Source: Patescibacteria group bacterium
GTDB lineage: Bacteria; Patescibacteriota; Doudnabacteria; UBA920
DNA length: 64,000 bases
Assembly (NCBI GenBank): GCA_013387205.1
Contig: WARV01000008.1
Coordinates: 64,136 to 128,135 of the forward strand
Reading direction: 5' to 3'
Below the pieces are notes generated by a model. It searched no databases, was not told where the DNA came from, and was given only the letters and a program-made list of their open reading frames with translations. Below, in pieces: positions 1 to 60,179 of the stretch. Position 1 is the first letter of the stretch; the number at the start of each line of letters is the position of its first letter. The position numbers and the translations under genes were made by a program.

Positions 1-175
1 TTAATTTTGTCATTGCGAGGAGCCCGCAGGGCGACGTGGCAATCTATTTTAGAGATCCTTCACCCTCAGATGCATTCGGGTTCAGGATGACGCCTAAAGG
101 CGTTAAGATTGCTTTGCTCCACCTTCGCTAAAGCTACGGCGGACAAGTCAGATGCATTCGCTCGCAATGACGACG
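1..175. repeat. Structured imperfect palindrome, repeat copy A (GTCATTGCGAG ... GTTAAGATTGCTT ... GCTCGCAATGAC); truncated by the window start
   Basis: Arms gtcattgcgag (8-18) and gctcgcaatgac (~160-172) are reverse complements. It shares motifs with copy B at 3345-3545. Confidence 0.5.
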
Positions 176-192
176 AGGATGAAAATTTAAAA

Positions 193-1695
193 ATGGCAAA
201 AAAACAATTTGACCACAAAATTTTGATAATCGGCTACGGGTCGGTTTCACAGTGCACGTTGCCAATTTTGTTAGAAAAATTGGATACGCCTTTGTCTAAC
301 ATTACCATCATGGATTTTGAAGACAAGGCCGCGGCGTTAAAACCATTTACCGACAAAGGCATAAATTTTGTCCGTAACCGCATCACTCCAGAAAATTTGG
401 ACAGCGAACTTTCCAAATATGTGGATGACGGCGGATTGTTAATTGATTTGGCCTGGAACATTGGTGCCAATGATATAATCGGCTGGTGCCACGACCACAA
501 TGTTTTATACGTTAACACCTCTGTGGAAGTTTGGGACTCCATAAAAGGCTTATTCACGGATTCTCCTTTCGAAAAATCACTTTATTTCAGGCAGATGAAA
601 CTGAGAGAAATGTCCAAAGACTGGAAAGATGCCACAACAGCAGTGGTTGACCATGGCGCGAATCCTGGATTAATTTCCCATTTCGTCAAACAGGGTTTAA
701 TTGATATTGCCAACAGAAAGATTTCCGACGGTAAAGCAACCGGCCAGGATAAAGATGAATTAGAGCAATTCATTAAAGACAGGGCGTTTAATAAGTTAGC
801 GCAAAAATTAAAAGTAAAAGTCATCCATTGCAGCGAGCGTGATACGCAAATCACAAACAAGCCGAAAGAGGTTGATGAATTCGTCGGCACCTGGAGTGTA
901 GAAGGCCTTCGTGAAGAAGGAACTGCTCCAGCAGAAATGGGATGGGGTTCTCATGAGAAAGAACTTCCCGCGTTGGCGCATGTGCCGCCGTTCGGTCCCA
1001 AGAACCAAATCTTTTTGGCGCAGATGGGCATGAACACCTGGGTCAGGTCCTGGATTCCGGACGAAGAAATTGTCGGTATGGTCATCCGCCACGGCGAAGC
1101 GTTCGGCCTTTCTGACAGATTGACTGTTTGGGATGGCGAACCTTTTGATGCTACAAAAGGCACATCTGATGAGGATTATAAAGGGAGAAAAGCACTTTAC
1201 CGTCCGACAGTCCACTATGCTTATATGCCTTGCCACGAGACTTTGTCCAGCATCTGCGAATTGCGCGGCAGGAATTATGAAATGCAATCAAAAGTCAGGA
1301 TTTTGGAAGACGAAATAACGTCCGGTGCGGATATCTTAGGTGCATTGCTCATGGGCCACGAATACAATTCCTGGTGGACCGGCAGCAATTTATCAATCGA
1401 GGAAGCCCGCAAGTTGGCTCCCGGCCAGAATGCCACGACTTTGCAGGTAGCCGCAGGGATAATGGGTGCTATTTTGTGGATGATAGAAAACCCGAAGAAA
1501 GGCATTTGCATACCGGATGATTTGCCGCACGATTTTGTACTGGATATTGCCAAACCGTATTTGGGCGAATTTATTTCTACGCCATCTGACTGGACCCCTA
1601 TGAAAAACCGCCAGGTCTTCTTTAAAGAAAATCCGTGCGCTTCAGGCAATCCTGAGGATCCGTGGCAATACGAGAATTTCCAGTTCATCGATTAA
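193..1695 (+). CDS. Homospermidine synthase-like / saccharopine-dehydrogenase-family NAD-binding protein
   Basis: The N-terminus KILIIGYGSVSQCTLPILLEKL resembles the Rossmann GFGSIG.GTLP motif of bacterial homospermidine synthases. Length is about 500 aa. The ORF-track start at 109 lies inside the upstream repeat, so the ATG at 193 is preferred. Confidence 0.55.
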   Translation: MAKKQFDHKILIIGYGSVSQCTLPILLEKLDTPLSNITIMDFEDKAAALKPFTDKGINFVRNRITPENLDSELSKYVDDGGLLIDLAWNIGANDIIGWCHDHNVLYVNTSVEVWDSIKGLFTDSPFEKSLYFRQMKLREMSKDWKDATTAVVDHGANPGLISHFVKQGLIDIANRKISDGKATGQDKDELEQFIKDRAFNKLAQKLKVKVIHCSERDTQITNKPKEVDEFVGTWSVEGLREEGTAPAEMGWGSHEKELPALAHVPPFGPKNQIFLAQMGMNTWVRSWIPDEEIVGMVIRHGEAFGLSDRLTVWDGEPFDATKGTSDEDYKGRKALYRPTVHYAYMPCHETLSSICELRGRNYEMQSKVRILEDEITSGADILGALLMGHEYNSWWTGSNLSIEEARKLAPGQNATTLQVAAGIMGAILWMIENPKKGICIPDDLPHDFVLDIAKPYLGEFISTPSDWTPMKNRQVFFKENPCASGNPEDPWQYENFQFID

Positions 1696-1744
1696 AAATA
1701 AAGCGACGAGAGAGCTTTAAGCGGCTCTCTCGTCGTGTATGTAA

Positions 1745-2077
1745 TTACTGGTTTATCAGCATAATCCCGATTAAGGCCAGGGCGGTTCCCGCAATGTGAA
1801 CGGGCTGAATCGTATCGCCGAAATACAGCCAACCGATAAGCATAACGCAAATGGTATAAGAAACCATCTGCATTATGCATAACCTGCCCAATTCCCATCG
1901 CTCCCTGAACATGTAAACGAACAAAATCATTTGGATGGTGTAAAGCACGATAGACGGCGGAATAAGCCAGTGGCTCAATCCGTGCCGCAATGAAGCGGAA
2001 TCGTTCGCGGCCTTTTTTAAAAAGGCATCAGCCACCGCTACGGAAATGCCCATTATTACCAGTATTAGAACTTTCAT
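1745..2077 (-). CDS. SMR/DMT-family small membrane transporter with 4 TM helices
   Basis: 110 aa with four hydrophobic helices. It sits between the two polyamine enzymes. MdtJI-type SMR proteins export spermidine (an inference). Confidence 0.55.
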   Translation of the reverse strand: MKVLILVIMGISVAVADAFLKKAANDSASLRHGLSHWLIPPSIVLYTIQMILFVYMFRERWELGRLCIMQMVSYTICVMLIGWLYFGDTIQPVHIAGTALALIGIMLINQ

Positions 2078-2134
2078 TTAGTTCCCCCTTGACCAAATAA
2101 TTTATCATTATTTTTATTTATAGTCAAGCCTAAG

Positions 2135-3340
2135 ATGACCAACCAACAAAAAGAATTTTTGCAAAAGATGGCCAAAGAGCATGGAACTCCCTTGTTCGTT
2201 ATTGACCACGAAATAATAAGAAATAATTTTAAAGAGTTCAGGGAAAAACTTCCTGATGTCCAGCCGTATTTCGCGGTAAAGGCTAACTCTAATCCGGAAA
2301 TAATCAAGACCATGTTCAACATGGGATCCAGCTTTGACGTGGCATCGATTTACGAATTCAAGCTGGTCCATAAGCATATTGAAGGCTGGCCGGATAAGGA
2401 AAGGCAAGATTTCATTTGGGACAAGGTTATTTACGCCAACACCATTAAACCGGCCAAGGTTTTGGCCAAGCTGAACCAGTATAAAATTTTAGTCACGTTT
2501 GATAATCTTGAAGAATTAAAAAAGATTAAACAGCACGCGCCTGACGTGGGATTAATTTTGCGCATTCGGGTGCCAAACACGGGCTCCATGGTAGAATTAT
2601 CATCTAAATTTGGCGCGCATCCTTCGGAAGCGGCGGATTTGATTTCCGAGGCAGCGAATATGGGCCTTGGCGTGGAAGGGATTAGTTTCCACGTAGGCAG
2701 CCAGTGCAATAATTTTGACAATTACGTGCAAGCGTTGAATTTGTCACATAACATTTTTAAAGAAGCTGAGCTGCGTGGTATTGAAATAGGTTTTACCGAC
2801 AAAGAAGGCAAAAAGAAAAAAGTTTTGGACATTGGCGGCGGTTTTCCAGTTAAGTATTCGCCGGACGTGAAATCTTTTGCCATGCTGGCCAAAAAACTGA
2901 ATTCGGAAATTAAAAGGCTGTTCGGCAAAGACAATATCCAGGTTATTGCCGAACCTGGCAGGTTTATGGTGGCCACTGCTTGTACATTGGTTACAAAAAT
3001 AATAGGCAAAGCAGTGCGCGACGGCAAGACTTGTTATTACTTGGACGACGGAGTTTACCACACTTTTTCCGGCCAGGTTTACGACCATCAACTGTATCCT
3101 TTGCATGCTTTTAAGGACGGAGAATTAAAGGTTTGCGCGACTTTCGGTCCGACTTGCGATGCTTTTGATACCATTTCTCTGGCCGATGAATTGCCCGAAG
3201 ATTTGCAGATTGATGATTTGCTTTACGCAGAGAATATTGGCGCTTATACATTGGCTTCGGCAACGGATTTTAACGGTTTTCCGGAAGCCAGAGTGCTGAA
3301 CATTAACGTAGAAGTAAAAGAAAAGCAGCCGGTAAAATAA
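2135..3340 (+). CDS. PLP-dependent ornithine/lysine decarboxylase (Orn/DAP/Arg decarboxylase family 2, alanine-racemase fold)
   Basis: Carries the PYFAVKANSNPEII motif (PLP-lysine region of ODC-type enzymes); length is 401 aa. Confidence 0.7.
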   Translation: MTNQQKEFLQKMAKEHGTPLFVIDHEIIRNNFKEFREKLPDVQPYFAVKANSNPEIIKTMFNMGSSFDVASIYEFKLVHKHIEGWPDKERQDFIWDKVIYANTIKPAKVLAKLNQYKILVTFDNLEELKKIKQHAPDVGLILRIRVPNTGSMVELSSKFGAHPSEAADLISEAANMGLGVEGISFHVGSQCNNFDNYVQALNLSHNIFKEAELRGIEIGFTDKEGKKKKVLDIGGGFPVKYSPDVKSFAMLAKKLNSEIKRLFGKDNIQVIAEPGRFMVATACTLVTKIIGKAVRDGKTCYYLDDGVYHTFSGQVYDHQLYPLHAFKDGELKVCATFGPTCDAFDTISLADELPEDLQIDDLLYAENIGAYTLASATDFNGFPEARVLNINVEVKEKQPVK

Positions 3341-3344
3341 CAAT

Positions 3345-3545
3345 TGAATCTACGAATTGGACGAACCTACCCCAACGGGGCCCCTTCGGGGCGAATCCCT
3401 ACGAAGCTGCGAATTGTATCAATGTCATTGCGAGCGAATGCCTCAAAGAGGTCCCTTTGGGGCATCTGAGCGAAGCAGTCCACCCTAAGGTTAAGATTGC
3501 TTCGTCTGTTGGATGCGCTCCAGGCTCGCAATGACAGAAAGCAAC
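3345..3545. repeat. Structured palindromic repeat, copy B, of the same family as 1-175
   Basis: gtcattgcgagcgaatgc ... ggttaagattgcttcg ... gctcgcaatgac. The long stem has a loop of about 90 nt. Confidence 0.5.
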
Positions 3546-3648
3546 CTTCAAAAAACGGCTAAATATTAGGTTTTAGCCGTTTATGATGCAGGATTGACAT
3601 AAGTCTTGGCTTAGTTTATAGTCATAAATAGGCATTAAATAAAAATAT

Positions 3649-3885
3649 ATGCAAGACGTAAATTTCCAACCAGTTTTTGATTACATAGATCAAACAAAAC
3701 AAGAATTGTTTGATAAATTAGCAAGTAAAGAAGATTTGAATATGCTCAAAAACTCTGTCGATGCCTATGCTAAACAATCAAAAGACATGTATCAGGAAGT
3801 AACTGTTTTGGTAGCCAAAGTCAGCAGAATGGAAAATTGGATTAAACAGGCATCCACAAAGTTAGGGATTGAATATCAAGTTTAA
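3649..3885 (+). CDS. Hypothetical small coiled-coil protein
   Basis: 78-aa ORF with coding-like composition; no family recognised. Confidence 0.35.
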   Translation: MQDVNFQPVFDYIDQTKQELFDKLASKEDLNMLKNSVDAYAKQSKDMYQEVTVLVAKVSRMENWIKQASTKLGIEYQV

Positions 3886-6607: not shown

Positions 6608-9166
6608 ATGAAAATGAAGAAGAAAAACCACGTCAAATTACCAATTCATGTCAGACCAGAACGGTATGAGATAATGCTCAAGCCGGATTTGGAGAATTTT
6701 TTGTTTGAAGGAGAAGAAACGATCTTTTTAACATTGGATAAATCAGTAAATGAAATTACTCTCCACTCCAAAGAATTGGAAATAGAATCGGCAGTATTTA
6801 GAGTTAAGAGTAAAGGGATAAGAGTTAAGAATATCAAATACGACGAAAAGGCGGAGACGATTATTTTTTCTTTTGCAGATAAACTGCCCAAAGGGGCAGG
6901 GGAATTGAAATTAAAATTCAAAGGCATTTTAAATGACAAAATGCGCGGATTTTACCGGAGCAAATACCACCATAAAGGCAAGGAAAGACACATGGCTACT
7001 ACGCAGTTTGAAGCGACTGATGCCAGGCGCGCCTTTCCTTGTTTTGACGAACCAGCGCAAAAAGCGATTTTCGACGTAACTTTAATGATTCCAAGCTTCA
7101 CAACCGCAATATCCAACACGATTGAAACTGAAGTCGTAGAACATACCAATGGGCTAAAGTCGGTTAAGTTCGCTTCGACCCCGAAAATGTCAACTTACCT
7201 TTTGGCCTTCATTGTCGGGGAATTCGAATGGATAGAAAGCAAAACCAAAGACGGGGTTGTGGTCAGGGTTTTTACAACACCGGGGAAAAAGCATCAGGCG
7301 AAATTCGCGCTTGGATGCGCGGTAAAATCACTGGAGTTTTACAATAATTATTTTGGCATTCCGTATCCGTTGCCGGTAATGGATTTAATTGCTATCCCGG
7401 ATTTTGAATCCGCGGCAATGGAAAACTGGGGAGCTGTTACTTACCGCGAATCCGCCCTGCTTGTTGATGAAGAACGTTCTTCAACCGCTAATAAAGAATG
7501 GGTGGCGATTGTCGTAGCTCATGAGCTGGCTCACCAGTGGTTCGGTAATTTAGTGACAATGGATTGGTGGACAGATTTGTGGCTGAACGAAGGCTTTGCG
7601 TCATACATGGAATATCTGGCAGTTGACCATATGTTTCCGAAATGGAACATGTGGACGCAGTATGTCGGCGGAAGATTCGCCAGGGCCTTGGATTTGGATT
7701 CGTTGGAACACACGCATCCAATTGAAATTGAGGTGCATCATCCGGACGAAATTGGAGAAATTTTTGATGAAGTCAGCTATGCCAAAGGCTCGGCCGTCAT
7801 CCGCATGCTGGCAGAATATTTAGGCGCGGAAACTTTCCGGAGAGGACTGGGTCATTACCTGAAAAAACACCAGTTCGGCAATGCAATAACATCTGATTTA
7901 TGGAAATCTTTTGAAGAAGTTTCCGGCAAGCCAGTAGGAAAAATAATGCAAAATTGGACGAGCAGGGCCGGTTATCCTTTGGTTAGCGTAGCTGACGGAG
8001 GAAAAATTTTGAACTTGAGCCAAAAAAGATTTTACAGCAGCCCGCTTTCGCTAAAAACTTCCAAAGACAATACTGTGTGGCAAATTCCTGTCAGCCTTTC
8101 ATCAGATAAAGACATGAATCAGGATAAAATAATTTTGGCATCAAAATCGCAGGCGATTAAATTGCCGGAAAATTTGAAATGGATAAAATTTAATGCCGGA
8201 CAAACCGGATTTTTCAGGACAAAATATCCTGAAAACCTGCTTGAAGGATTGTCGCAGCCAATAAAGGCAAAAAAACTTCCTGCTGCTGACCGATTGGGAA
8301 TTTTAAGCGATGCTTTTGCGTTAGTCGAAGCCGGGCAAATGCCGACTGTCGCGCTTTTGGAACTTTTAAAAAGTTATGAAGATGAAAATGATTATACGGT
8401 ATGGACAGAAATTATTTCTTGTCTAAGGACGCTGGACTCTTTGCTGTTTGAGACGGATGCCAGGAAGAAATTCAATGAATTCAGCCGCAAGATGCTTAAA
8501 AAAATAGCCGAACGCGTGGGGTGGGTTGCTAAAAAGCACGAAGACCATACGACTACGTTATTGCGCAGCCTGGTCTTGGTCAATTTAGGACACTTTGGCG
8601 ACAAGGATATAAAAACCAAATCTCTTAAAATGTTTTGGGGCAAAAAAAACATACCTGCGGATTTGCGCGGAATCGTCTATAGGATGGTGGCGGAAAACGG
8701 TTCCAATAAAGAATTTTTAGAGATGAAAAAAAGGTACGAGGCCGAACCTATGCATGAAGAGCAGGACAGGCTAGGCAGGAACATGGCATTTTTTGCTGAT
8801 GAAAAAATCCTGGCTAAGGTCTTTGATTTCGCCATGTCCGGCAAAGTCAGGATCCAGGATACGCCGTTTATAATAGGTTCGGGATTCTTTAATCCTGCCG
8901 GCAGGAACGCTGTGCTATCTTACGTTAAAAAGAATTGGAAAAATCTTGCTGATAAATTCGGCAGCGGCCACTTAATAGTAAGGTTTATCCACCCGATGGA
9001 TAGTTTTGTTTCAAAAGAGAAAGCGGATGAAATTGAACAATTCTTTAAAAAGTACCCGACTCCTTCGGCTAACAGGACCATAAAGCAGGTTTTGGAAAAA
9101 ATTATTTCCAACGACGCCTGGCTTAAGAGAGATTTAGATAGTATTAATGAATGGTTAAAAAAATAA
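6608..9166 (+). CDS. pepN: Aminopeptidase N (M1 family zinc metallopeptidase)
   Basis: GAMEN motif, then HELAHQWFGN ... 18 residues ... E (HEXXH-E); 852 aa. Confidence 0.85.
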   Translation: MKMKKKNHVKLPIHVRPERYEIMLKPDLENFLFEGEETIFLTLDKSVNEITLHSKELEIESAVFRVKSKGIRVKNIKYDEKAETIIFSFADKLPKGAGELKLKFKGILNDKMRGFYRSKYHHKGKERHMATTQFEATDARRAFPCFDEPAQKAIFDVTLMIPSFTTAISNTIETEVVEHTNGLKSVKFASTPKMSTYLLAFIVGEFEWIESKTKDGVVVRVFTTPGKKHQAKFALGCAVKSLEFYNNYFGIPYPLPVMDLIAIPDFESAAMENWGAVTYRESALLVDEERSSTANKEWVAIVVAHELAHQWFGNLVTMDWWTDLWLNEGFASYMEYLAVDHMFPKWNMWTQYVGGRFARALDLDSLEHTHPIEIEVHHPDEIGEIFDEVSYAKGSAVIRMLAEYLGAETFRRGLGHYLKKHQFGNAITSDLWKSFEEVSGKPVGKIMQNWTSRAGYPLVSVADGGKILNLSQKRFYSSPLSLKTSKDNTVWQIPVSLSSDKDMNQDKIILASKSQAIKLPENLKWIKFNAGQTGFFRTKYPENLLEGLSQPIKAKKLPAADRLGILSDAFALVEAGQMPTVALLELLKSYEDENDYTVWTEIISCLRTLDSLLFETDARKKFNEFSRKMLKKIAERVGWVAKKHEDHTTTLLRSLVLVNLGHFGDKDIKTKSLKMFWGKKNIPADLRGIVYRMVAENGSNKEFLEMKKRYEAEPMHEEQDRLGRNMAFFADEKILAKVFDFAMSGKVRIQDTPFIIGSGFFNPAGRNAVLSYVKKNWKNLADKFGSGHLIVRFIHPMDSFVSKEKADEIEQFFKKYPTPSANRTIKQVLEKIISNDAWLKRDLDSINEWLKK

Positions 9167-9288: not shown

Positions 9289-10290
9289 ATGAACACAAAG
9301 AAATTTAAAAACAACAAGCAAGACATGATTAAAGCGGCAAAAATAATTAAAGCCGGAGGGCTTGTTGCGTTCCCAACGGAAACGGTTTACGGGCTCGGTG
9401 CCAATGCCTTGGATAAAAAAGCGGTCGCTAAGATTTTTAAGGCGAAAAGGCGCCCAAAATGGGACCCGATTATTTCCCATGTGGATTCGCTTGAAATGAT
9501 AGAATCTTTGGTCGGGAATCTTCCTGAGGATTTTTGGATTGTTTATACAAATTTCATGCCGGGACCGATAACCGTTTTGCTCGAAAAATCCAAAATTGTA
9601 CCCGATATTTTGACAGCCGGGAGTGAAAAAGTCTCTATTAGGATGCCAAGCGATAAAATTGCCAGGCGGCTTATTAAATTAAGTGGCGTGCCGATTGCCG
9701 CACCTAGCGCAAACTTATTTGGCAAAACCAGTCCGACAGACGCTAAGCACGTATTGTCAGATTTATCAGGAAAAATTGATGCGATAATCGATGGCGGACA
9801 AACAAAAGTCGGCGTGGAATCGACCGTATTGGATTTAACTGGCAAGGTGCCTGTAATTTTAAGGCCGGGAGGCATTACGAAAGAAGAATTGGAAAAAGTT
9901 TTGGGTAAAGTAAAGATTGCCAGCAAATCGATCGTGAAACCCAAAACCAACATGGCTTCGCCGGGTATGCATTTTAGGCATTATGCTCCAAAAGCGAAAT
10001 TGATTTTAACCAAAGGTGACCCCGAAAGCCTTAAAAGGGAAATTTCACTTTATCAAAAACAAGGAAAGCGGGTAGGGGTCATGCTGCCTAAAAACTGGAA
10101 AATTAAAACAGGTGCTGCCGCAAACTATAATTGGGGAAATTGGGATAATTTAAGACAATTGGCGCAAAATGTTTATAGAGGCTTAAGGTTTCTTGATGAC
10201 CAGGGCGTAGATATTATCATTTGCCCAAAACCAGAAGCTGAAAGTTTGGGCTTTGCGATAAACGACAGGCTTGAAAGGGCTTCCAAGTGA
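9289..10290 (+). CDS. tsaC: L-threonylcarbamoyladenylate synthase (Sua5/TsaC; the YrdC domain plus a Sua5 C-domain)
   Basis: GGLVAFPTETVYGLGANA. At 333 aa it is the long Sua5 type. The start could alternatively be the internal Met at about 9325. Confidence 0.8.
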   Translation: MNTKKFKNNKQDMIKAAKIIKAGGLVAFPTETVYGLGANALDKKAVAKIFKAKRRPKWDPIISHVDSLEMIESLVGNLPEDFWIVYTNFMPGPITVLLEKSKIVPDILTAGSEKVSIRMPSDKIARRLIKLSGVPIAAPSANLFGKTSPTDAKHVLSDLSGKIDAIIDGGQTKVGVESTVLDLTGKVPVILRPGGITKEELEKVLGKVKIASKSIVKPKTNMASPGMHFRHYAPKAKLILTKGDPESLKREISLYQKQGKRVGVMLPKNWKIKTGAAANYNWGNWDNLRQLAQNVYRGLRFLDDQGVDIIICPKPEAESLGFAINDRLERASK

Positions 10291-10601: not shown

Positions 10602-12122
10602 ATGAAACCGAAAATTAAGCTCCTCCTCTCATTTTTAGGCATTTTAGTGTTAGCCGCCTCAGCTGTATGGATAGCTTTACCGCAAGGCAGCAAAATCGAC
10701 TTAAATAAACTCAAAATAAAATATTCCCAAAGCTTTAGAATCCATTTAGGATTGGACCTTCAGGGCGGATCGCACTTGGTTTACCAGGCTGATTTTAAGG
10801 ATATTAAAGACAGCGATAAAGCTGACGCTCTAAACGCTATCCGTGATACGGTTGAGCGCAGGGTTAACAGCTTTGGAGTCAGCGAACCCCTGGTGCAAGT
10901 TACAGGGACTGACCGTATTATCGTTGAATTGCCTGGCATTAAGGACGTCAACGAAGCCATTAACCAAATAGGCCAGACTCCGTTTTTGGAATTCAGGACA
11001 CAGAACCCGAACCCGCCAGAACTTAAGCCTAATAACAAGGGCGAAGTTGTCATTGACCCGAATTCCCAATGGATTCCAACCGGCTTGTCCGGCAAACAGC
11101 TCAAGAAAGCCAGTGTGGATTTTCAGCAGGGAAAGGGACTTAACAACGAAATAGTGGTCAGGCTGGAATTTAACGACGAAGGAAAAAAATTATTCTCTGA
11201 TATCACGACAGCAAATGTGGGCAAGCAGGTTGCCATCTTTTTGGACGGACAAATTTTGAGCGCTCCGGTCGTGCAAAATCCGATTACTGACGGCACTGCG
11301 ATAATTACCGGAAACTTTACGACCCAGCAGGCCAAAGATTTGGCCACCAGACTCAACAGTGGAGCCCTTCCGGTTCCTATAAAGTTGATTTCGCAGCAGA
11401 ACGTTGGCGCCACGCTAGGAAAAGAATCTGTCCAGAAATCCATCATAGCGGGACTTATTGGTCTTATCATGATTGCCTTGTTCATGATTATGTATTACCG
11501 TTTCCCGGGTTTTTTGGCAGTTATCGCTTTGCTAATTTACGCCGTGGTTTCTTTGGCAGTATTTAAAATCGGCATTTCGTTTACCGCAGTTTTGCTTGTG
11601 GGATTTTTCTTCTTCCTTGGACTTACTGTGAATTTTTGGTTTGGCATTTTGGCGCTCTTGAGTTATATCTTATTGATGTTCCTGAAAGGATTATCTCCGG
11701 TTACTCTAACCTTGGCAGGCATCGCTGGTTTCATTTTGTCCATCGGTATGGCAGTTGACGCCAACATTCTTATTTTCGAGCGCGTAAAAGAAGAAATAAG
11801 GGCAGGCAAAGAAATCCACAAAGCCGTTGATGACGGTTTTGCCAGAGCCTGGCTGTCCATCCGTGATTCAAACGTTTCCAGCTTAATTACTACCGCCATC
11901 CTTTATATTTTCGGCAGCCCGTCCATTAAAGGTTTTGCAGTTACGCTGGGGATTGGTATTTTAATCTCCATGTTTACGGCCATAACCGTCACCAGGACTT
12001 TCCTGAGGCTGTTTGTTGGCAATAACATTATGACCCATCCGTGGCTGTTTGGAGTAAGCAAGTTAAAACCAGAAAAGAAAGATGCTCCGAATACGAATCA
12101 AGAACCTGTAACAACAATATAA
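10602..12122 (+). CDS. secD: Protein translocase subunit SecD
   Basis: LGLDLQGGSHLVY motif; 506 aa with C-terminal TM helices; followed by secF. Confidence 0.85.
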   Translation: MKPKIKLLLSFLGILVLAASAVWIALPQGSKIDLNKLKIKYSQSFRIHLGLDLQGGSHLVYQADFKDIKDSDKADALNAIRDTVERRVNSFGVSEPLVQVTGTDRIIVELPGIKDVNEAINQIGQTPFLEFRTQNPNPPELKPNNKGEVVIDPNSQWIPTGLSGKQLKKASVDFQQGKGLNNEIVVRLEFNDEGKKLFSDITTANVGKQVAIFLDGQILSAPVVQNPITDGTAIITGNFTTQQAKDLATRLNSGALPVPIKLISQQNVGATLGKESVQKSIIAGLIGLIMIALFMIMYYRFPGFLAVIALLIYAVVSLAVFKIGISFTAVLLVGFFFFLGLTVNFWFGILALLSYILLMFLKGLSPVTLTLAGIAGFILSIGMAVDANILIFERVKEEIRAGKEIHKAVDDGFARAWLSIRDSNVSSLITTAILYIFGSPSIKGFAVTLGIGILISMFTAITVTRTFLRLFVGNNIMTHPWLFGVSKLKPEKKDAPNTNQEPVTTI

Positions 12123-12264
12123 ATTAACCTAGTTATTCTAATTAACCTAGTTGACCTAAATAAATCCCAATAACCAAAGAAATCAAGTTTTGGCTTTAGA
12201 AATTAGGCATTAGACATTATTTAGAATAATTAGAACAATTAGGTCAATTAGAAATTTAAATACT
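12123..12264. repeat. Palindromic intergenic element, family R1 ('aattag / ctaatt' word repeats), copy 1
   Basis: Arms of the aattaacctagttattctaatt ... aattagaacaattaggtcaattag type. The same element is found at 24054 and 39296. Confidence 0.55.
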
Positions 12265-22652: not shown

Positions 22653-24053
22653 ATGAATTTAAAAGAATTGCAAGGAAAACTTGTTGCGGTTTTGGGGTTT
22701 GGCTTAGAAGGCCAGGCTATAACCAGGTATTTACTGAAACACGGCATAAAACCCGTGTTGTTTGATGAAAAGATATGGGATAAATGGGATAAGGACCGGC
22801 AGAGTTTGATAAAATCTCTGGATATCAATTTTATTTTTGGTCCTGATTGCTACAAAGAATTGGCCGGATTTGATATAATTTTCCGCAGTCCAGGCATCCC
22901 ATTGTCAAAGGTCAAAGGTCAAAGGTCAGATGTTGTGATTACTTCCCAGACCAAATGGTTTTTTGAGCATTGCCCCTGTAAAATAATAGGCGTGACCGGA
23001 ACAAAAGGGAAAGGGACAACATCGACTTTAATATCGGAAATATTAAAGTTGCAATTTCGAATTTCGAATTTCGAATTTCAAGTTTATTTAACTGGAAATA
23101 TCGGTAAGGAACAGCCTTTGGATTTTTTGGATAATTTAACAAAGGATGATTGGGTGGTTTACGAGCTTTCCAGTTTCCAGCTGCAGGACTTGGATAGGAG
23201 CCCACACATCGGTGTTGTATTAATGGTCACCCAGGAACATCTTGATTACCATAAAGACGTTGAAGAATATTGCCAGGCAAAAGAATCAATCGTTAAATTC
23301 CAATCCGTAGAAGATTATTCGGTTATAAACATGGATTACGAAAGTTCGGTTAAAATTGGCAATAACGGAGCCGGACAAAAGAGGTATTTCAGCGCCCGGG
23401 GCAAGTCCGGTGTAGATTGCTATGTTAAAGACGGGGCATTTTACTTGAAAAACAATGGCTCATCCCCGGATGAGCCATTCGTTGAAGCCAAAGATTTACA
23501 GCTTAGGGGTGAGCATAATTGGGAAAACGTCTGTGCTGCCGCTACTGCGGCTATTTCTGCCGGATGCAGCTTGGATACCGTAAAAACAGGGGCTTTAGCT
23601 TTTAAAGGCTTAGAACACCGCCTGGAATTTGTTGATGAGAAAAACGGCGTAAAATATTACAACGATTCATTTTCCACCACTCCGGAAACAGCTATTGCCG
23701 CAATCAAGTCTTTCAGCGAACCGGAGATTGTTATCTTAGGCGGTTCGTCCAAGAATTCTGATTTTACAGAGCTTGGCAAAACTATTGTCGAATCGAAAAA
23801 TATCAAATGTTTGGTGCTTATAGGCCTGGAATCCGGCAGGATTTTGGATGCAATAAATTCCAGCGGAAAAATAGAGGCGCAAATTTTGCAAGGCGCTGAA
23901 TCAATGCAAGAAATTTTTGGACAGATTGCTTCCGTAGCAAAAGCGGGAGATGTTGTTTTGTTAAGCCCGGCCTGCGCGTCTTTTGGGATGTTCAAGAATT
24001 ATAAAGATAGGGGAGAGCAGTTTAAATTTTTCGTTGAAAAATTTAAAAATTGA
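22653..24053 (+). CDS. murD: UDP-N-acetylmuramoylalanine--D-glutamate ligase
   Basis: KLVAVLGFGLEGQA; GVTGTKGKGTTST P-loop. Contains two heptamer tandem-repeat tracts. Confidence 0.85.
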   Translation: MNLKELQGKLVAVLGFGLEGQAITRYLLKHGIKPVLFDEKIWDKWDKDRQSLIKSLDINFIFGPDCYKELAGFDIIFRSPGIPLSKVKGQRSDVVITSQTKWFFEHCPCKIIGVTGTKGKGTTSTLISEILKLQFRISNFEFQVYLTGNIGKEQPLDFLDNLTKDDWVVYELSSFQLQDLDRSPHIGVVLMVTQEHLDYHKDVEEYCQAKESIVKFQSVEDYSVINMDYESSVKIGNNGAGQKRYFSARGKSGVDCYVKDGAFYLKNNGSSPDEPFVEAKDLQLRGEHNWENVCAAATAAISAGCSLDTVKTGALAFKGLEHRLEFVDEKNGVKYYNDSFSTTPETAIAAIKSFSEPEIVILGGSSKNSDFTELGKTIVESKNIKCLVLIGLESGRILDAINSSGKIEAQILQGAESMQEIFGQIASVAKAGDVVLLSPACASFGMFKNYKDRGEQFKFFVEKFKN

Positions 24054-24179
24054 CCTAATTAACCTAATTGTTCCTAATTATTCTAAATAATGCATAAAGA
24101 TTTTTAAAAATTAGAGATTGGGATTTATTTAGGTTAATTAGAATAATTAGAGCAATTAGAATAATTTTAATTCTAATCA
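24054..24179. repeat. Palindromic intergenic element, family R1, copy 2
   Basis: tgacctaattaacctaattgttcctaattattctaaataa ... atttaggttaattagaataattagagcaattagaataatt. Confidence 0.6.
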
Positions 24180-31702: not shown

Positions 31703-31870
31703 AACCTCAATAAAATGAGGGGTTTTATAATATTACCAAAAAGTATGCTAAAATAAAGACATGTTCAGAAACAGGAAAGTTTTAAACCGGATAATGTATG
31801 TCTTGGCCATAATCATGATTGCTTCCATGGTTTTGGTATTGTTTGGTTTTTCGTTATTTAAATAAATATA

Positions 31871-31910
31871 ATCCGAATTACCCGAATCTTATCCAAATGA
31901 CCCGAAAACG
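31871..31910. repeat. Partial copy (left arm) of palindromic element family R2
   Basis: atccgaattacccgaatcttatccaaatgacccgaaaa matches the left arms at 40018 and 59100. Confidence 0.5.
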
Positions 31911-31965
31911 ATATTCGTAGTTCGTAGAGATTCGTTGATTCGTTCCATTTGCAGATTCGATTTTT

Positions 31966-39295: not shown

Positions 39296-39442
39296 CCCAA
39301 ATTTTTAATTGACCTAATTAACCTAATTGTTCCTAATTATTCTAAATAAATCCCAATTTCTAATTACACAAATATTAGACATTGGATCATTAGTCATTAT
39401 TTAGGTTAATTAGAATAATTAGAGCAATTAGAATAATTCTTT
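39296..39442. repeat. Palindromic intergenic element, family R1, copy 3
   Basis: tgacctaattaacctaattgttcctaattattctaaataaatcccaat ... atttaggttaattagaataattagagcaattagaataatt. Confidence 0.6.
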
Positions 39443-40018
39443 ATGATAATCGATATCCATCAAATTTCTCAACTCTTGATCCCAATTGCCCACGCGGCAG
39501 AAGAAGCCGCAAACACGGAATCTTCCGGAGGCGCCTTGGCGACTTTGGGCGTTAACTGGAAATTATTTATTGCCCAACTGGTTAACTTCGGCATAATTTT
39601 GGCCGTCCTTTGGAAATTTGTCTTCATTCCAGTGGCAAAACAGCTTACTGAAAGAACAGAAAAAATTGAAAAATCGTTAAGCGATGCCGACAGGATAACT
39701 AAAGAAAAGGATGAATTCACCAAATGGCGCGAAGCCGAAATTTCCAAGACTAAAGCCCAAGCGGCCACGATAGTCGCAGCAGCGGAAAGCGAGGCTAATA
39801 AAGCCAAGCAGCAGATAGCCGAACAGACCAAGCAGGAACAGGATAAAATTATCAGGCAGGCCAAAGATTTGATTGAATCGGAAAAGCAGAAAGCAGTCAG
39901 GGATATTAAGTCTGAGGTGGCGGAAATGGTTACTGCGGCTACAGAAAAGATTTTAAGGCAAAAATTGGACAATAAGACAGATAAGGAATTGATTAAGGAA
40001 TCATTAAAAAGTATATAA
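39443..40018 (+). CDS. atpF: F0F1 ATP synthase subunit b
   Basis: N-terminal TM helix and a long charged coiled coil. Confidence 0.75.
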   Translation: MIIDIHQISQLLIPIAHAAEEAANTESSGGALATLGVNWKLFIAQLVNFGIILAVLWKFVFIPVAKQLTERTEKIEKSLSDADRITKEKDEFTKWREAEISKTKAQAATIVAAAESEANKAKQQIAEQTKQEQDKIIRQAKDLIESEKQKAVRDIKSEVAEMVTAATEKILRQKLDNKTDKELIKESLKSI

Positions 40019-40105
40019 TCCGAATTACCCGAATTCTATCCAAATGCCCCGAAAAGGGAAAAGCATTTGGGGTATTCGGATAACTATTCGGAGCATTAGG
40101 ATTAT
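40018..40105. repeat. Palindromic element family R2, full copy, ending 4 nt before the atpH ATG and containing its AGGA ribosome-binding site
   Basis: atccgaattacccgaattctatccaaatgccccgaaaaggg ... tttggggtattcggataactattcggagcattaggattat; the two halves are reverse complements. Confidence 0.6.
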
Positions 40106-40109
40106 GTAA

Positions 40110-40502
40110 ATGAAAATCTCTCCCCAACAATACGCTCAAAGCCTTTTTGACGCCATAAGCGAAACTAACCCCAAGGACCACGATTTGATCATGGACAATT
40201 TTGTAAAGATTTTGGCAAAGAACGGGGACTTGGATAAATATCCGGAAATCGAAAAGGAATTTAGGTCGTTGCAGCTGAAAGATAAAGGGATTAAAGAAGC
40301 AGAAATAACCTTAGCAAGGCCGCATGAAGTATCGCACGAAATAGTACAGGAACTGAATAAGATAATCGGCAACAAAGTTGAAGTTAAAACTAAGATTGAT
40401 GAAAACCTGATAGGCGGAGTGGTGGTAAGGGTAGACGACCAGCTTATAGACGCCAGCGTAAAAAAACAGCTTGAAAATTTAAACCAATCACTTAAATCAT
40501 AA
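40110..40502 (+). CDS. atpH: F0F1 ATP synthase subunit delta (short form)
   Basis: C-terminus IGGVVVRVDDQLIDASVKKQLENL (OSCP signature). 130 aa, versus about 177 aa typically. Confidence 0.7.
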   Translation: MKISPQQYAQSLFDAISETNPKDHDLIMDNFVKILAKNGDLDKYPEIEKEFRSLQLKDKGIKEAEITLARPHEVSHEIVQELNKIIGNKVEVKTKIDENLIGGVVVRVDDQLIDASVKKQLENLNQSLKS

Positions 40503-58717: not shown

Positions 58718-59092
58718 ATGTTGAAATCTCCAAAACAACAAGTTGCTTACATAATTATCAGCACGCTCTTGGCGGGTTTTTCACTGGGATCAATAATCAA
58801 TTTTACCGATCCCTTTACTGCCAGCAAGATAACCCACGGTTTCTTTTATCTGAGTTTGTTCATTTTTAGTTTAGGAATTTTCACGACAATCGGCCTGCTA
58901 ATAAGGAAATGGTTTAACCCGGCCCTGTTCGTGATAAATTTAAACAATAGCTTCAGGCAGGCTCTGCTGATTTCACTTTTAATCATCGCATCCTTCTTAT
59001 TACTGGCAAACAAGCTGTTGTTTTGGTGGGTTGAGGCAAGCTTAGCGCTATTTTTGATATTTTTAGAGGCATTCTTAAATCTTAAAGTCTGA
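58718..59092 (+). CDS. Small 4-TM membrane protein, hypothetical
   Basis: 124-aa hydrophobic ORF. Confidence 0.35.
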   Translation: MLKSPKQQVAYIIISTLLAGFSLGSIINFTDPFTASKITHGFFYLSLFIFSLGIFTTIGLLIRKWFNPALFVINLNNSFRQALLISLLIIASFLLLANKLLFWWVEASLALFLIFLEAFLNLKV

Positions 59093-59099
59093 TAACATA

Positions 59100-59185
59100 A
59101 TCCGAATTATCCGAATCTTATCCAAATGACCCGAAAAGGGAACCGTTTGGGGCATTCGGATAGTAATTCGGGGCATTAGGATTAT
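59100..59185. repeat. Palindromic element family R2, full copy, ending 4 nt before the pheS ATG and containing its ribosome-binding site
   Basis: atccgaattatccgaatcttatccaaatgacccgaaaagggaaccgtttggggcattcggatagtaattcggggcattaggattat. Confidence 0.6.
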
Positions 59186-59189
59186 TTTA

Positions 59190-60179
59190 ATGATCAACAT
59201 TGACCAAATCAAGCAATCTTTCGAGCAGGATATAAAAGCTATCACTGATGTTGAGAGTTTGAAAGTTAAGTATCTGGGTAGAAAGCAGGGGCTTTTAACT
59301 TTGGCTTTTAAAGAACTGGTAAATTTAGACCAGGCCCAAAGGCAAAAACTAGGCCCTTTGTTAAATTCTTTGAAAAAGGAAATTGAAAACGCAATATTAA
59401 ATTTGGAAAAACAATCTGCGTCAAGTTCAGAAAAAGCCGATTTAACAGTACCTCCAATTTCTGAAATGACCGGGATGCTGCACCCCTTAAGCAAAACCCA
59501 AAAAGACCTGGAAGATATCTTTCTTTCCTTGGGCTTTACGGTTGAAAACGGCCCTGAAATAGAAAGCGATTATAATAATTTCGTTGCTTTAAACTTTCCA
59601 GATGACCATCCGGCGCGCGACATGCAAGATACTTTTTACATAAAAGGGCCCGAGACCAAAGACCCGCATAAAAAATTGGTAATGCGTACGCATACTTCGC
59701 CCGTGCAAGTCAGGTTCATGAAAACCCACAAACCGCCGTTTGCCATTATTGTTCCCGGAACTGTTTATAGGAACGAGGCTACAGATGTCACCCACGAATA
59801 CACGCTTACCCAACTGGAAGGCTTGGTCGTAGGGGAAGATGTGAATTTCGCGAACATGGTCTGGACGCTGGATTACGTCTTAAAAAAGTATTTCGGGTCT
59901 GATATAAAAACAAAAATTTTGCCGACATATTTCCCGTTCGTAGAACCGGGAGCTGAATTGGCAATGTCCAGCCCGCGTTTTAAGGATGGAAAATGGGTGG
60001 AAATGCTGGGCTGCGGCATGGTCCATCAAAATGTTTTCAAGCACGCCGGCTACCAGACGGGTAAATACCAGGGATTCGCCTTTGGTTTTGGCACCATGAG
60101 ATTCCCTTTAATGAAGCATGGAATTCCTGACATCAGGCTGCTTCATGAAAATAATTTGCAATTTTTAAGCCAATTCTAA
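59190..60179 (+). CDS. pheS: Phenylalanine--tRNA ligase alpha subunit
   Basis: TQLEGLVVGEDVNFANMVWTLDYVLKKYFG and FPFVEPGAEL (class II motifs). Confidence 0.9.
   Translation: MINIDQIKQSFEQDIKAITDVESLKVKYLGRKQGLLTLAFKELVNLDQAQRQKLGPLLNSLKKEIENAILNLEKQSASSSEKADLTVPPISEMTGMLHPLSKTQKDLEDIFLSLGFTVENGPEIESDYNNFVALNFPDDHPARDMQDTFYIKGPETKDPHKKLVMRTHTSPVQVRFMKTHKPPFAIIVPGTVYRNEATDVTHEYTLTQLEGLVVGEDVNFANMVWTLDYVLKKYFGSDIKTKILPTYFPFVEPGAELAMSSPRFKDGKWVEMLGCGMVHQNVFKHAGYQTGKYQGFAFGFGTMRFPLMKHGIPDIRLLHENNLQFLSQF

Follow-up and report, generated by a model that had tools for sequence, protein, structure and literature searches.

Two structured palindromic repeats enclose a small group of polyamine genes at the beginning of a 64,000-nucleotide stretch of a Patescibacteria genome (Doudnabacteria, UBA920; GenBank assembly GCA_013387205.1, contig WARV01000008.1, positions 64,136–128,135 of the forward strand), and this arrangement raises the question of whether the repeats and the genes between them belong together. 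The whole stretch is called the window hereafter and is numbered from its first letter. The genes in question are those of a homospermidine synthase (HSS; hss) and a predicted ornithine decarboxylase (ODC; odc), separated by an orphan open reading frame (ORF). An earlier note on this DNA proposed that the repeats could be either the borders of a transferred cassette, resembling MITEs (miniature inverted-repeat transposable elements), or cis-regulatory RNAs. Considering the make-up of the repeats, their distribution, and their occurrence in relatives, we concluded that the locus is very probably an ordinary conserved polyamine gene pair accompanied by two independent copies of a ubiquitous family of CGTC-type repetitive extragenic palindromic (REP) sequences, which are not the borders of a mobile cassette.

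Two palindromes of different composition

The 11-mer GTCATTGCGAG, searched together with its reverse complement, occurred at exactly four sites in the window (9–19, 161–171, 3424–3434, and 3525–3535). When up to one mismatch was allowed, six sites were found against an expectation of 0.74, and none of 100 shuffled sequences reached this number. The four exact sites form two palindromes, copy A at 8–172 (165 nt) and copy B at 3423–3536 (114 nt), each bounded by the family termini YGTCATTGCGAG...CTCGCAATGACR. The repeats placed by the earlier note at 1–175 and 3345–3545 are thus real but were wrongly delimited. The 3341–3423 segment was tried as a part of copy B and rejected (fold z-scores of +0.3 and +0.5 for 3341–3425 relative to shuffled sequences, no family match). 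Both copies proved to be structured palindromes as claimed, with predicted folding energies of −61.5 kcal/mol (z −3.4 relative to shuffled sequences) for copy A and −60.2 kcal/mol (z −7.7) for copy B, and the motifs that they had been said to share, GTTAAGATTGCTT, GATGC, and CACCCT, were indeed present. On the other hand, they are not two copies of one unit of approximately 170 nt: copy A combines three units while copy B is a dimer, and they have in common mainly the termini and one unit type. Since a profile of 388 foreign units (nhmmer) matched the four heads of A and B alone, these are the sole copies of the family in the window.

The individual units are given in Table 1. The first 37 nt of the canonical unit A1 were identical to elements on three unrelated viral contigs (L020, L036, and L039; loci are designated by L numbers throughout), the nested unit A2 is of the type that forms the hss-flanking dimers of the relatives L270 and L272, and unit B2 could be aligned with the units on the right-hand side in L276 and L275, the elements of which adjoin hss or odc. 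The copy B element together with its flanks was also found on Logan contig L001. The tags of the window units are TGTC at 8–11 and 3423–3426 and, read as reverse complement, CGTC at 169–172, TGTC at 3533–3536, and, in the nested unit, CGTC at 89–92. The tail is CCA in unit B1 and CTA or CTT in the other units. The two units of copy B are separated by 10 nt, and the spacer of copy A holds its third unit. A promoter-like site of the next gene follows copy B, which therefore lies between transcription units.

A dispersed family of inverted dimers

The family was traced by the pattern GTCATTGCGAG-N-CTCGCAATGAC with a gap of either 70–100 or 30–60 nt. On viral contigs 58 stretches matched it with the longer gap and 92 with the shorter one, and at least 120 loci matched on contigs representing one genome per species. 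Palindromes bounded by the family termini, most of them 60–130 nt long, were present at more than 270 unrelated loci in many phyla and on phage contigs; such abundance at hundreds of unrelated loci is what the earlier note itself had set against its interpretation. The matches listed included Alpha- and Gammaproteobacteria, Bacteroidota, Chloroflexota, Desulfobacterota, Ignavibacteriota, Armatimonadetes, Parcubacteria, Clostridia, and Rickettsiaceae, and the hosts named among them were Bradyrhizobium, Legionellales, Coxiellaceae, Solimonas, Mucilaginibacter, Pedobacter, Chloroflexus, Anaerolineae, and a Rickettsiaceae endosymbiont. Unannotated copies were found on plasmids of Novosphingobium (N. 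aromaticivorans), Methylosinus, and Methylobacterium. Rfam gave no match on A or B, whether the gathering threshold or E ≤ 10 was applied, and none at 12 loci with canonical copies, while a literature search with the repeat strings returned only unrelated primers. Some copies lie in-frame inside ORFs: a 108-nt copy (L281, 14,940–15,047) is located within an 840-aa ORF, which, judged by its N-terminus, probably encodes a leucyl-tRNA synthetase, and 75-nt copies occur in long ORFs of phage contigs (L140, 2260–2334, in a portal-like ORF; L133, 3129–3203; L122, 941–1015).

The family members share a simple architecture. In 289 elements, the palindrome reached one base past the 11-mer, the base before GTC being C in 66% and T in 29% with a complementary base on the opposite side, by which the CGTC/TGTC head is formed. 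GCAAY was held by 90% of the half-elements, the form being GTC-ATTGC-GAG-(loop)-GAA/GTG/GCG-GCAAT, and the tail after GCAAT was CCA in 249 of 521 units (48%) and CTC in 122 of 521 (23%). The unit stem consists of five pairs (ATTGC/GCAAT, the first two being A-T), and the next positions are mismatched. The loop is 9–19 nt long in most units and 19–46 nt in the units of the window. The sequence d(GCGNAGC) is a classic ultra-stable DNA mini-hairpin, and it was found in the loops of 152 of 388 distinct units (39%; units from L003–L264), against 9.4 (approximately 2%) in shuffled sequences. This excess is a hint of the units being active in the form of single-stranded DNA.

The tags were outside in all elements found, and the median spacer was 28 nt (5th–95th percentile 16–57). 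The halves were unequal, differing in loop length, in 188 of the 232 dimers. No compensated changes were seen in the inner stem, where the GAA/GTG and GAA/GCG heterodimers outnumbered the GTG/GTG and GCG/GCG pairs. Because the halves differ and the inner stem lacks covariation, the repeated entity is a half-unit arranged in inverted dimers with outward heads and not one selected long RNA helix.

Several hallmarks of transposons were looked for in the family. No target-site duplication was detected, as flank identity remained at background for k = 1–8 in the 289 elements, and none was found at A or B. Clustering of the 1804 ORFs located within 150 nt of the elements (approximately 2.2 Mb of loci) revealed no recurrent neighbour gene family, and neither a linked transposase nor a RAYT (REP-associated tyrosine transposase) was present among these neighbours. 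A link to GIY-YIG or four-helix-bundle (23S intervening sequence) genes was considered as well and rejected, the clusters consisting only of phage structural genes and spurious read-through ORFs. In a sample biased to short elements, only three pairs of termini were more than 260 nt apart, and no transposase-like ORF was enclosed by them; thus, no long autonomous element with the same termini was found.

Comparison with known palindromic repeats

The closest published description is that of the CGTC-tagged REP superfamily (Di Nocera, De Gregorio and Rocco, 2013, BMC Genomics 14:522, PMC3733652). These REPs carry an unpaired CGTC (often TGTC) tag, a stem of 8–9 bp beginning with A-T pairs, a loop of 4–5 nt, which is variable in Bradyrhizobium CGTC-1, and a short CCA tail. 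They occur mostly as head-to-head dimers with the tags outside and spacers of 20–100 bp, heterodimers being common; they have no dedicated transposase and no flanking target duplications, and some copies are intragenic. Their hosts belong to five phyla and include Bradyrhizobium, N. aromaticivorans, Coxiella, Rickettsia (RPE-4 and RPE-6), and Neisseria (dRS3) (PMC3733652).

The elements described here agree with these REPs in the outer CGTC/TGTC tag, the body starting with AT, and the CCA-type tail, as well as in the organization into head-to-head, mostly heterologous dimers with spacers of tens of nucleotides, the lack of target duplications and of a dedicated transposase, and the intragenic copies. 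Hosts are also shared (Bradyrhizobium, Novosphingobium aromaticivorans, Coxiellaceae, and Rickettsiaceae), while the range observed here adds Patescibacteria, Chloroflexota, Desulfobacterota, Ignavibacteriota, and phage contigs. The supplements of PMC3733652 contained no strings matching the units. Judged by the published description, the elements fit CGTC-type REP-like head-to-head dimers, without assignment to any of the subfamilies CGTC-1 to CGTC-4.

Other systems resemble the family in part. The GTAG REPs, BIMEs, and REPINs, which are mobilised by RAYTs (IS200/IS605-like, Y1), likewise consist of short palindromic units in inverted dimers that fold as one hairpin; they are intergenic, cause no target duplication, are presumably processed in single-stranded form, and can stabilise the upstream mRNA. 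The tag of the family described here is, however, CGTC/TGTC, and no linked RAYT or other transposase accompanies it. The Rickettsia palindromic elements (RPE; Ogata et al., 2000 and 2002, as cited in PMC3733652) are reportedly selfish palindromic DNA of approximately 100 nt residing in-frame in genes. In-frame copies such as that in the 840-aa ORF of L281 and those in the long phage ORFs are similar to them, whereas the copies in the window are intergenic. With bacterial MITEs such as Correia and Nezha, the elements share a size of approximately 100–170 nt, inverted repeats at the termini, and a strong tendency to form hairpins, but they differ in the lack of target-site duplications, and no cognate insertion sequence sharing their ends was detected.

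Occupancy of the two sites in relatives

The adjacency of hss and odc is kept in two distinct genomic contexts among the relatives. The gene order of the window (hss, odc, ORFs of 78 and 108 aa, a NUDIX gene, and an M1 peptidase gene) recurs in L269, where secA lies upstream of hss; the window itself begins at copy A. In spite of this synteny, the sites of A and B were occupied differently. L269 carries a decayed element upstream of hss at the same site and a remnant after hss, while no element follows odc, and hss and odc are separated by five extra genes. In L271, a half-decayed element is located upstream of hss and none was seen after hss, this contig ending where odc begins. The element upstream of hss in L275 is clean, 86 nt long, and located at the same site with the same left flank, and none was found after odc. 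The reverse was observed in L276, where the element is present after odc only and is missing upstream of hss. In L270/L272, one sister-type dimer lies upstream of hss and another after it, by which hss alone is flanked. Finally, L265, L267, and L273 have no element either upstream or downstream. The two sites are thus occupied independently while the genes and the synteny are kept, which is not as expected of cassette borders.

These observations bear directly on the proposal that the repeats form the inverted structures at the ends of a MITE-bounded composite cassette, which would have brought hss, the membrane ORF, and odc as one unit. The two copies in the window do bracket exactly the hss-to-odc block, hss is prone to transfer (approximately 72% identity to the Methanoperedens proteins), hss-odc resides in at least two genomic contexts even in close relatives, its products are more conserved than those of the neighbouring genes, and in several lineages the elements are clustered at the hss/odc borders. 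Nevertheless, no target-site duplication exists at A, at B, or across the family (289 members), and A and B are alike only in the generic family termini and one unit type. The sites are occupied independently in L269, L271, L275, and L276 despite the conserved genes and flanks, the elements of L270/L272 bracket hss alone, and L269 has five additional genes within the block. The family is also devoid of an associated transposase, both at the loci analysed here and in PMC3733652. The cassette is largely refuted by these synteny data, and we regard such an origin as highly improbable.

Clustering of elements at hss and odc

The preferred explanation, that an ordinary gene pair acquired two independent copies of a ubiquitous CGTC-type REP family, has to be weighed against a number of observations that do not favour it. 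As to the family assignment, the units have five contiguous Watson-Crick pairs, followed by mismatches and an internal mini-hairpin, in contrast to the 8–9 pairs described for CGTC REPs, and their loops are longer and variable, reaching 46 nt in the atypical units of the window. As to the independence of repeats and genes, a survey of 86 hss loci and the window (968 kb) with a degenerate head pattern counted 36 element heads, and 17 of these were no more than 200 nt away from an end of hss or odc, a zone that makes up 4.8% of the sequence. Among the 19 distant heads, approximately 7 matches to this pattern would be expected by chance. The signal is reduced by two corrections, one for the intergenic preference of the elements and the other for insertions shared by descent; approximately four to five apparently independent insertions adjoin hss/odc compared with approximately two elsewhere. 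A model of random selfish DNA alone does not predict this clustering. In addition, HSS and ODC are 83% and 85% identical between the window and L269, while the products of the syntenic neighbours are 35–68% identical, and this higher conservation would fit a degree of horizontal homogenisation in the module.

Possible causes of the clustering are permissive long spacers, co-transfer with a transfer-prone module, or a co-opted RNA role. The last of these is suggested by the position of the elements, which end 20–53 nt before the ATG of hss in five lineages (window, L275, L269, L271, and L270/L272) and belong to two sister types. According to this alternative, the hairpins would function as a 5′-leader structure before the ribosome-binding site of hss and as a 3′ stabiliser or insulator after odc, each determining how stable the transcript is or how it is translated, as enterobacterial REPs do. 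The consistent position before hss agrees with it, just as the very stable predicted structures and the location of copy B between the odc stop codon and the next promoter do; moreover, a position downstream of ORFs has been reported for most REPs, many of which are plausibly transcribed (PMC3733652). A conserved function is, however, difficult to reconcile with the close relatives L265, L267, and L273, which have no elements, and with the decayed copy of L269. The inner stems show no covariation, the same elements are found at hundreds of unrelated loci and in the interior of ORFs, and no Rfam family corresponds to them; the earlier suggestion of a cis-regulatory RNA is likewise not supported. 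A co-opted RNA role therefore seems unlikely. In a broader form, CGTC-type hairpins could be retained non-randomly at the hss/odc ends in Patescibacteria for some function, serving either transcript insulation and stabilising or as homology patches for swapping the module between lineages, and we consider this quite unlikely as well.

Genes between the repeats

The positions of the genes and other features are listed in Table 1. The product of hss was confirmed as a homospermidine synthase by its full-length similarity: all of its 14 matches in the PDB are homospermidine synthases, the best one being the Legionella enzyme (2ph5, E 7e-97, residues 5–496), and 7965 homologues were found at E ≤ 1e-30. 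In this respect, the earlier identification stood. The protein thus resembles the bacterial HSS enzymes of Blastochloris viridis (4plp) and Legionella in its full-length similarity, in the putrescine-forming decarboxylase encoded alongside, and in its occurrence in the candidate phyla radiation (CPR). The closest named homologues (70–85% identity) belong to Patescibacteria (Doudnabacteria, Paceibacterota, and Nealsonbacteria), with Methanoperedens at approximately 72%. According to the homologue search, hss is common in Patescibacteria, and hss-ODC clusters have been reported in CPR bacteria (Li et al., 2023, PMC10407285); consequently, the pathway is not noteworthy in a reduced genome, as had been supposed. 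The clusters in PMC10407285 differ in their decarboxylase, which is a pyruvoyl, SpeD-derived enzyme, while that encoded here is pyridoxal phosphate (PLP)-dependent and has an alanine-racemase fold.

The earlier assignment of odc was likewise upheld. The best PDB matches of its product are lysine/ornithine decarboxylases (5gjm, E 2e-66; 2plj, E 3e-66), followed by eukaryotic ODCs (3e-49) and, farther, by diaminopimelate decarboxylase (4e-28). The score with the lysA model was 166.6 bits against a cutoff of 297.9, and the speA and nspC models also remained below their cutoffs. The nearest structures, 5gjm and 2plj, are dual-specificity lysine/ornithine enzymes, and ornithine is preferred over lysine as the predicted substrate because the adjacency to hss is conserved. 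Both enzyme calls support the pathway proposed earlier, in which ornithine would be converted to putrescine by the predicted ODC and putrescine to sym-homospermidine by HSS.

The ORF between hss and odc had been taken for a four-transmembrane exporter of the small multidrug resistance (SMR) type. Its four hydrophobic segments were recognisable, but no SMR (PF00893) match was obtained even at E ≤ 10. EamA scored below threshold (22.4 bits against a cutoff of 28.2, E 1.6e-4), the only other match being Mtp at 14.8 bits, no relative was found in the PDB, and the protein search returned the ORF itself alone. Since the EamA match is weak and neither an SMR match, a solved relative, nor another homologue exists, the SMR likeness is one of topology only. 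The EamA gene located between hss and odc in L269 was tried as a homologue and rejected, as the two showed no similarity, and in the relatives this position is occupied by other genes or by none. The ORF may encode a half-size transporter of the drug/metabolite transporter (DMT) superfamily, or it may be an orphan that evolves fast, or else a relic.

Table 1. Positions of the repeats, their units, and the adjacent genes in the window
Feature	Position	Strand	Description
Copy A, composite palindrome	8–172		Three CGTC/TGTC-tagged units, tags outward; 20 nt before the hss start codon
Unit A1, canonical	8–46	+	T-GTC-ATTGC-GAG-[GAGCCCGCAGGGCGACGTG]-GCAAT-CT; nhmmer E 3.6e-8 (388 foreign units)
Unit A2, nested, sister type	52–92	−	CGTC-ATCCT-GA...-AGGAT-CTC, read from the sequence; head motif TCAGGATGAC at 82–91
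Unit A3, atypical	104–172	−	CGTC-ATTGC-GAG head, 46-nt loop starting with CGAATGCATCTGA, then GCAAT-CTT; head E 0.011
hss, homospermidine synthase, 500 aa	193–1695	+	NAD(P)-binding domain and saccharopine-dehydrogenase C-terminal domain (PF03435 and PF16653)
12-bp GC-rich hairpin	1704–1735		Between the convergent hss and 110-aa ORF; terminator-like, T-run on the minus strand
Orphan ORF, 110 aa	1745–2077	−	Between hss and odc; four hydrophobic segments (translation read by eye)
odc, predicted PLP-dependent ornithine (possibly ornithine/lysine) decarboxylase, 401 aa	2135–3340	+	Alanine-racemase fold; PLP-binding barrel and C-terminal sheet domain, PF02784 (E 6.6e-50), PF00278 (E 1.4e-16)
Copy B, head-to-head dimer	3423–3536		odc 3′ region, 82 nt past the stop codon, upstream of the promoter of the next gene
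Unit B1, atypical	3423–3482	+	TGTC-ATTGC-GAG head, 40-nt loop holding its own hairpin, then GCAGT-CCA; head E 0.012
Unit B2, canonical, clade-specific subtype	3493–3536	−	Loop ..GGAGCGCATCCAACAGACGAA; nhmmer E 1.1e-6
Promoter-like site of the next gene (3649–3885)	3594–3622	+	TTGACA-17-TATAGT, 11/12

Further observations on hss and on other repeats

A common leader was observed upstream of hss in six distinct relatives (L265, ~9830–9990; L267, ~9800–9990; L270, ~8700–8880, identical to L272, ~9690–9870; L273, ~860–1040; L274, ~3480–3660; and L275, ~9700–9880). It contains a promoter-like site (TTGACA-17-TAAATT) and an invariant hairpin, AAGTCA-AYYCA-ATGGCTT, which includes ATGGCTTAG (Met-Ala-stop), and ends in an intrinsic terminator, the stem of which shows compensatory changes. 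The leader had no match in Rfam and was absent from the loci with the secA context. We regard it as a candidate for an attenuator or a riboswitch-like element of the homospermidine operon.

The HSS proteins of Methanoperedens and Methanosarcinales (P0065, P0079, P0085, P0097, P0101, P0111, and P0113) were 72–73% identical to the window protein, and this likeness indicates a putative inter-domain transfer involving Patescibacteria. In L275, a second copy of the last ~45 codons of hss lies approximately 300 nt past its stop codon (11,400–11,910), apparently as the result of an insertion that duplicated or replaced the 3′-end of the gene. In L270 (17,739–20,460), GyrA is split by an intein that contains a LAGLIDADG endonuclease domain, and in L272 a LAGLIDADG ORF is located just upstream of hss.

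Two further palindrome families, each with three copies, were noticed in the window. One is intergenic, approximately 100 nt long (31,856–31,960, 40,003–40,113, and 59,085–59,193), and made up of CCGAAT-like units, repeated periodically, and then their inverted complement (ATTCGG). The other is AT-rich and consists of inverted arrays that have a period of 9 nt (TTAGAATAA / TTAGAGCAA; 12,116–12,258, 24,048–24,175, and 39,299–39,438), two of which have identical segments of 42–43 nt.

Possible behaviour of the elements and significance

Taken as a working model, the locus would function as follows. ODC would yield putrescine and HSS would join two putrescines into sym-homospermidine, while the elements beside their genes would be selfish REP-like DNA, settled in intergenic spacers and occasionally in-frame in genes without target-site duplication. 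Their unit of ~25–60 nt can be written as (C/T)GTC-ATTGC-GAG-(variable loop, often a GCGNAGC mini-hairpin)-GAA-GCAAT-CC(A) and is arranged in dimers, or as a trimer in copy A. Such units may spread via single-stranded DNA hairpin intermediates with the help of an enzyme acting in trans. Copy A, just upstream of the ribosome-binding site of hss, and copy B, in the 3′ region of odc, would be transcribed as stable hairpins, which may incidentally stabilise or insulate the transcripts.

For the locus itself, this carries little weight, since selfish palindromic repeats lie beside an ordinary polyamine gene pair. It is of more concern for the family, for which Rfam has no entry and the public records returned carry no annotation. 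ORFs spuriously reading through the repeats, which yield peptides of the HCE...LAMT type, are a source of junk protein predictions. If the elements are CGTC-type REPs as their features suggest, the range of this type would extend far beyond the five described phyla, to Patescibacteria, Chloroflexota, and phage genomes, the termini being conserved down to the single base, and the question raised by the family is how such elements spread without a dedicated transposase.

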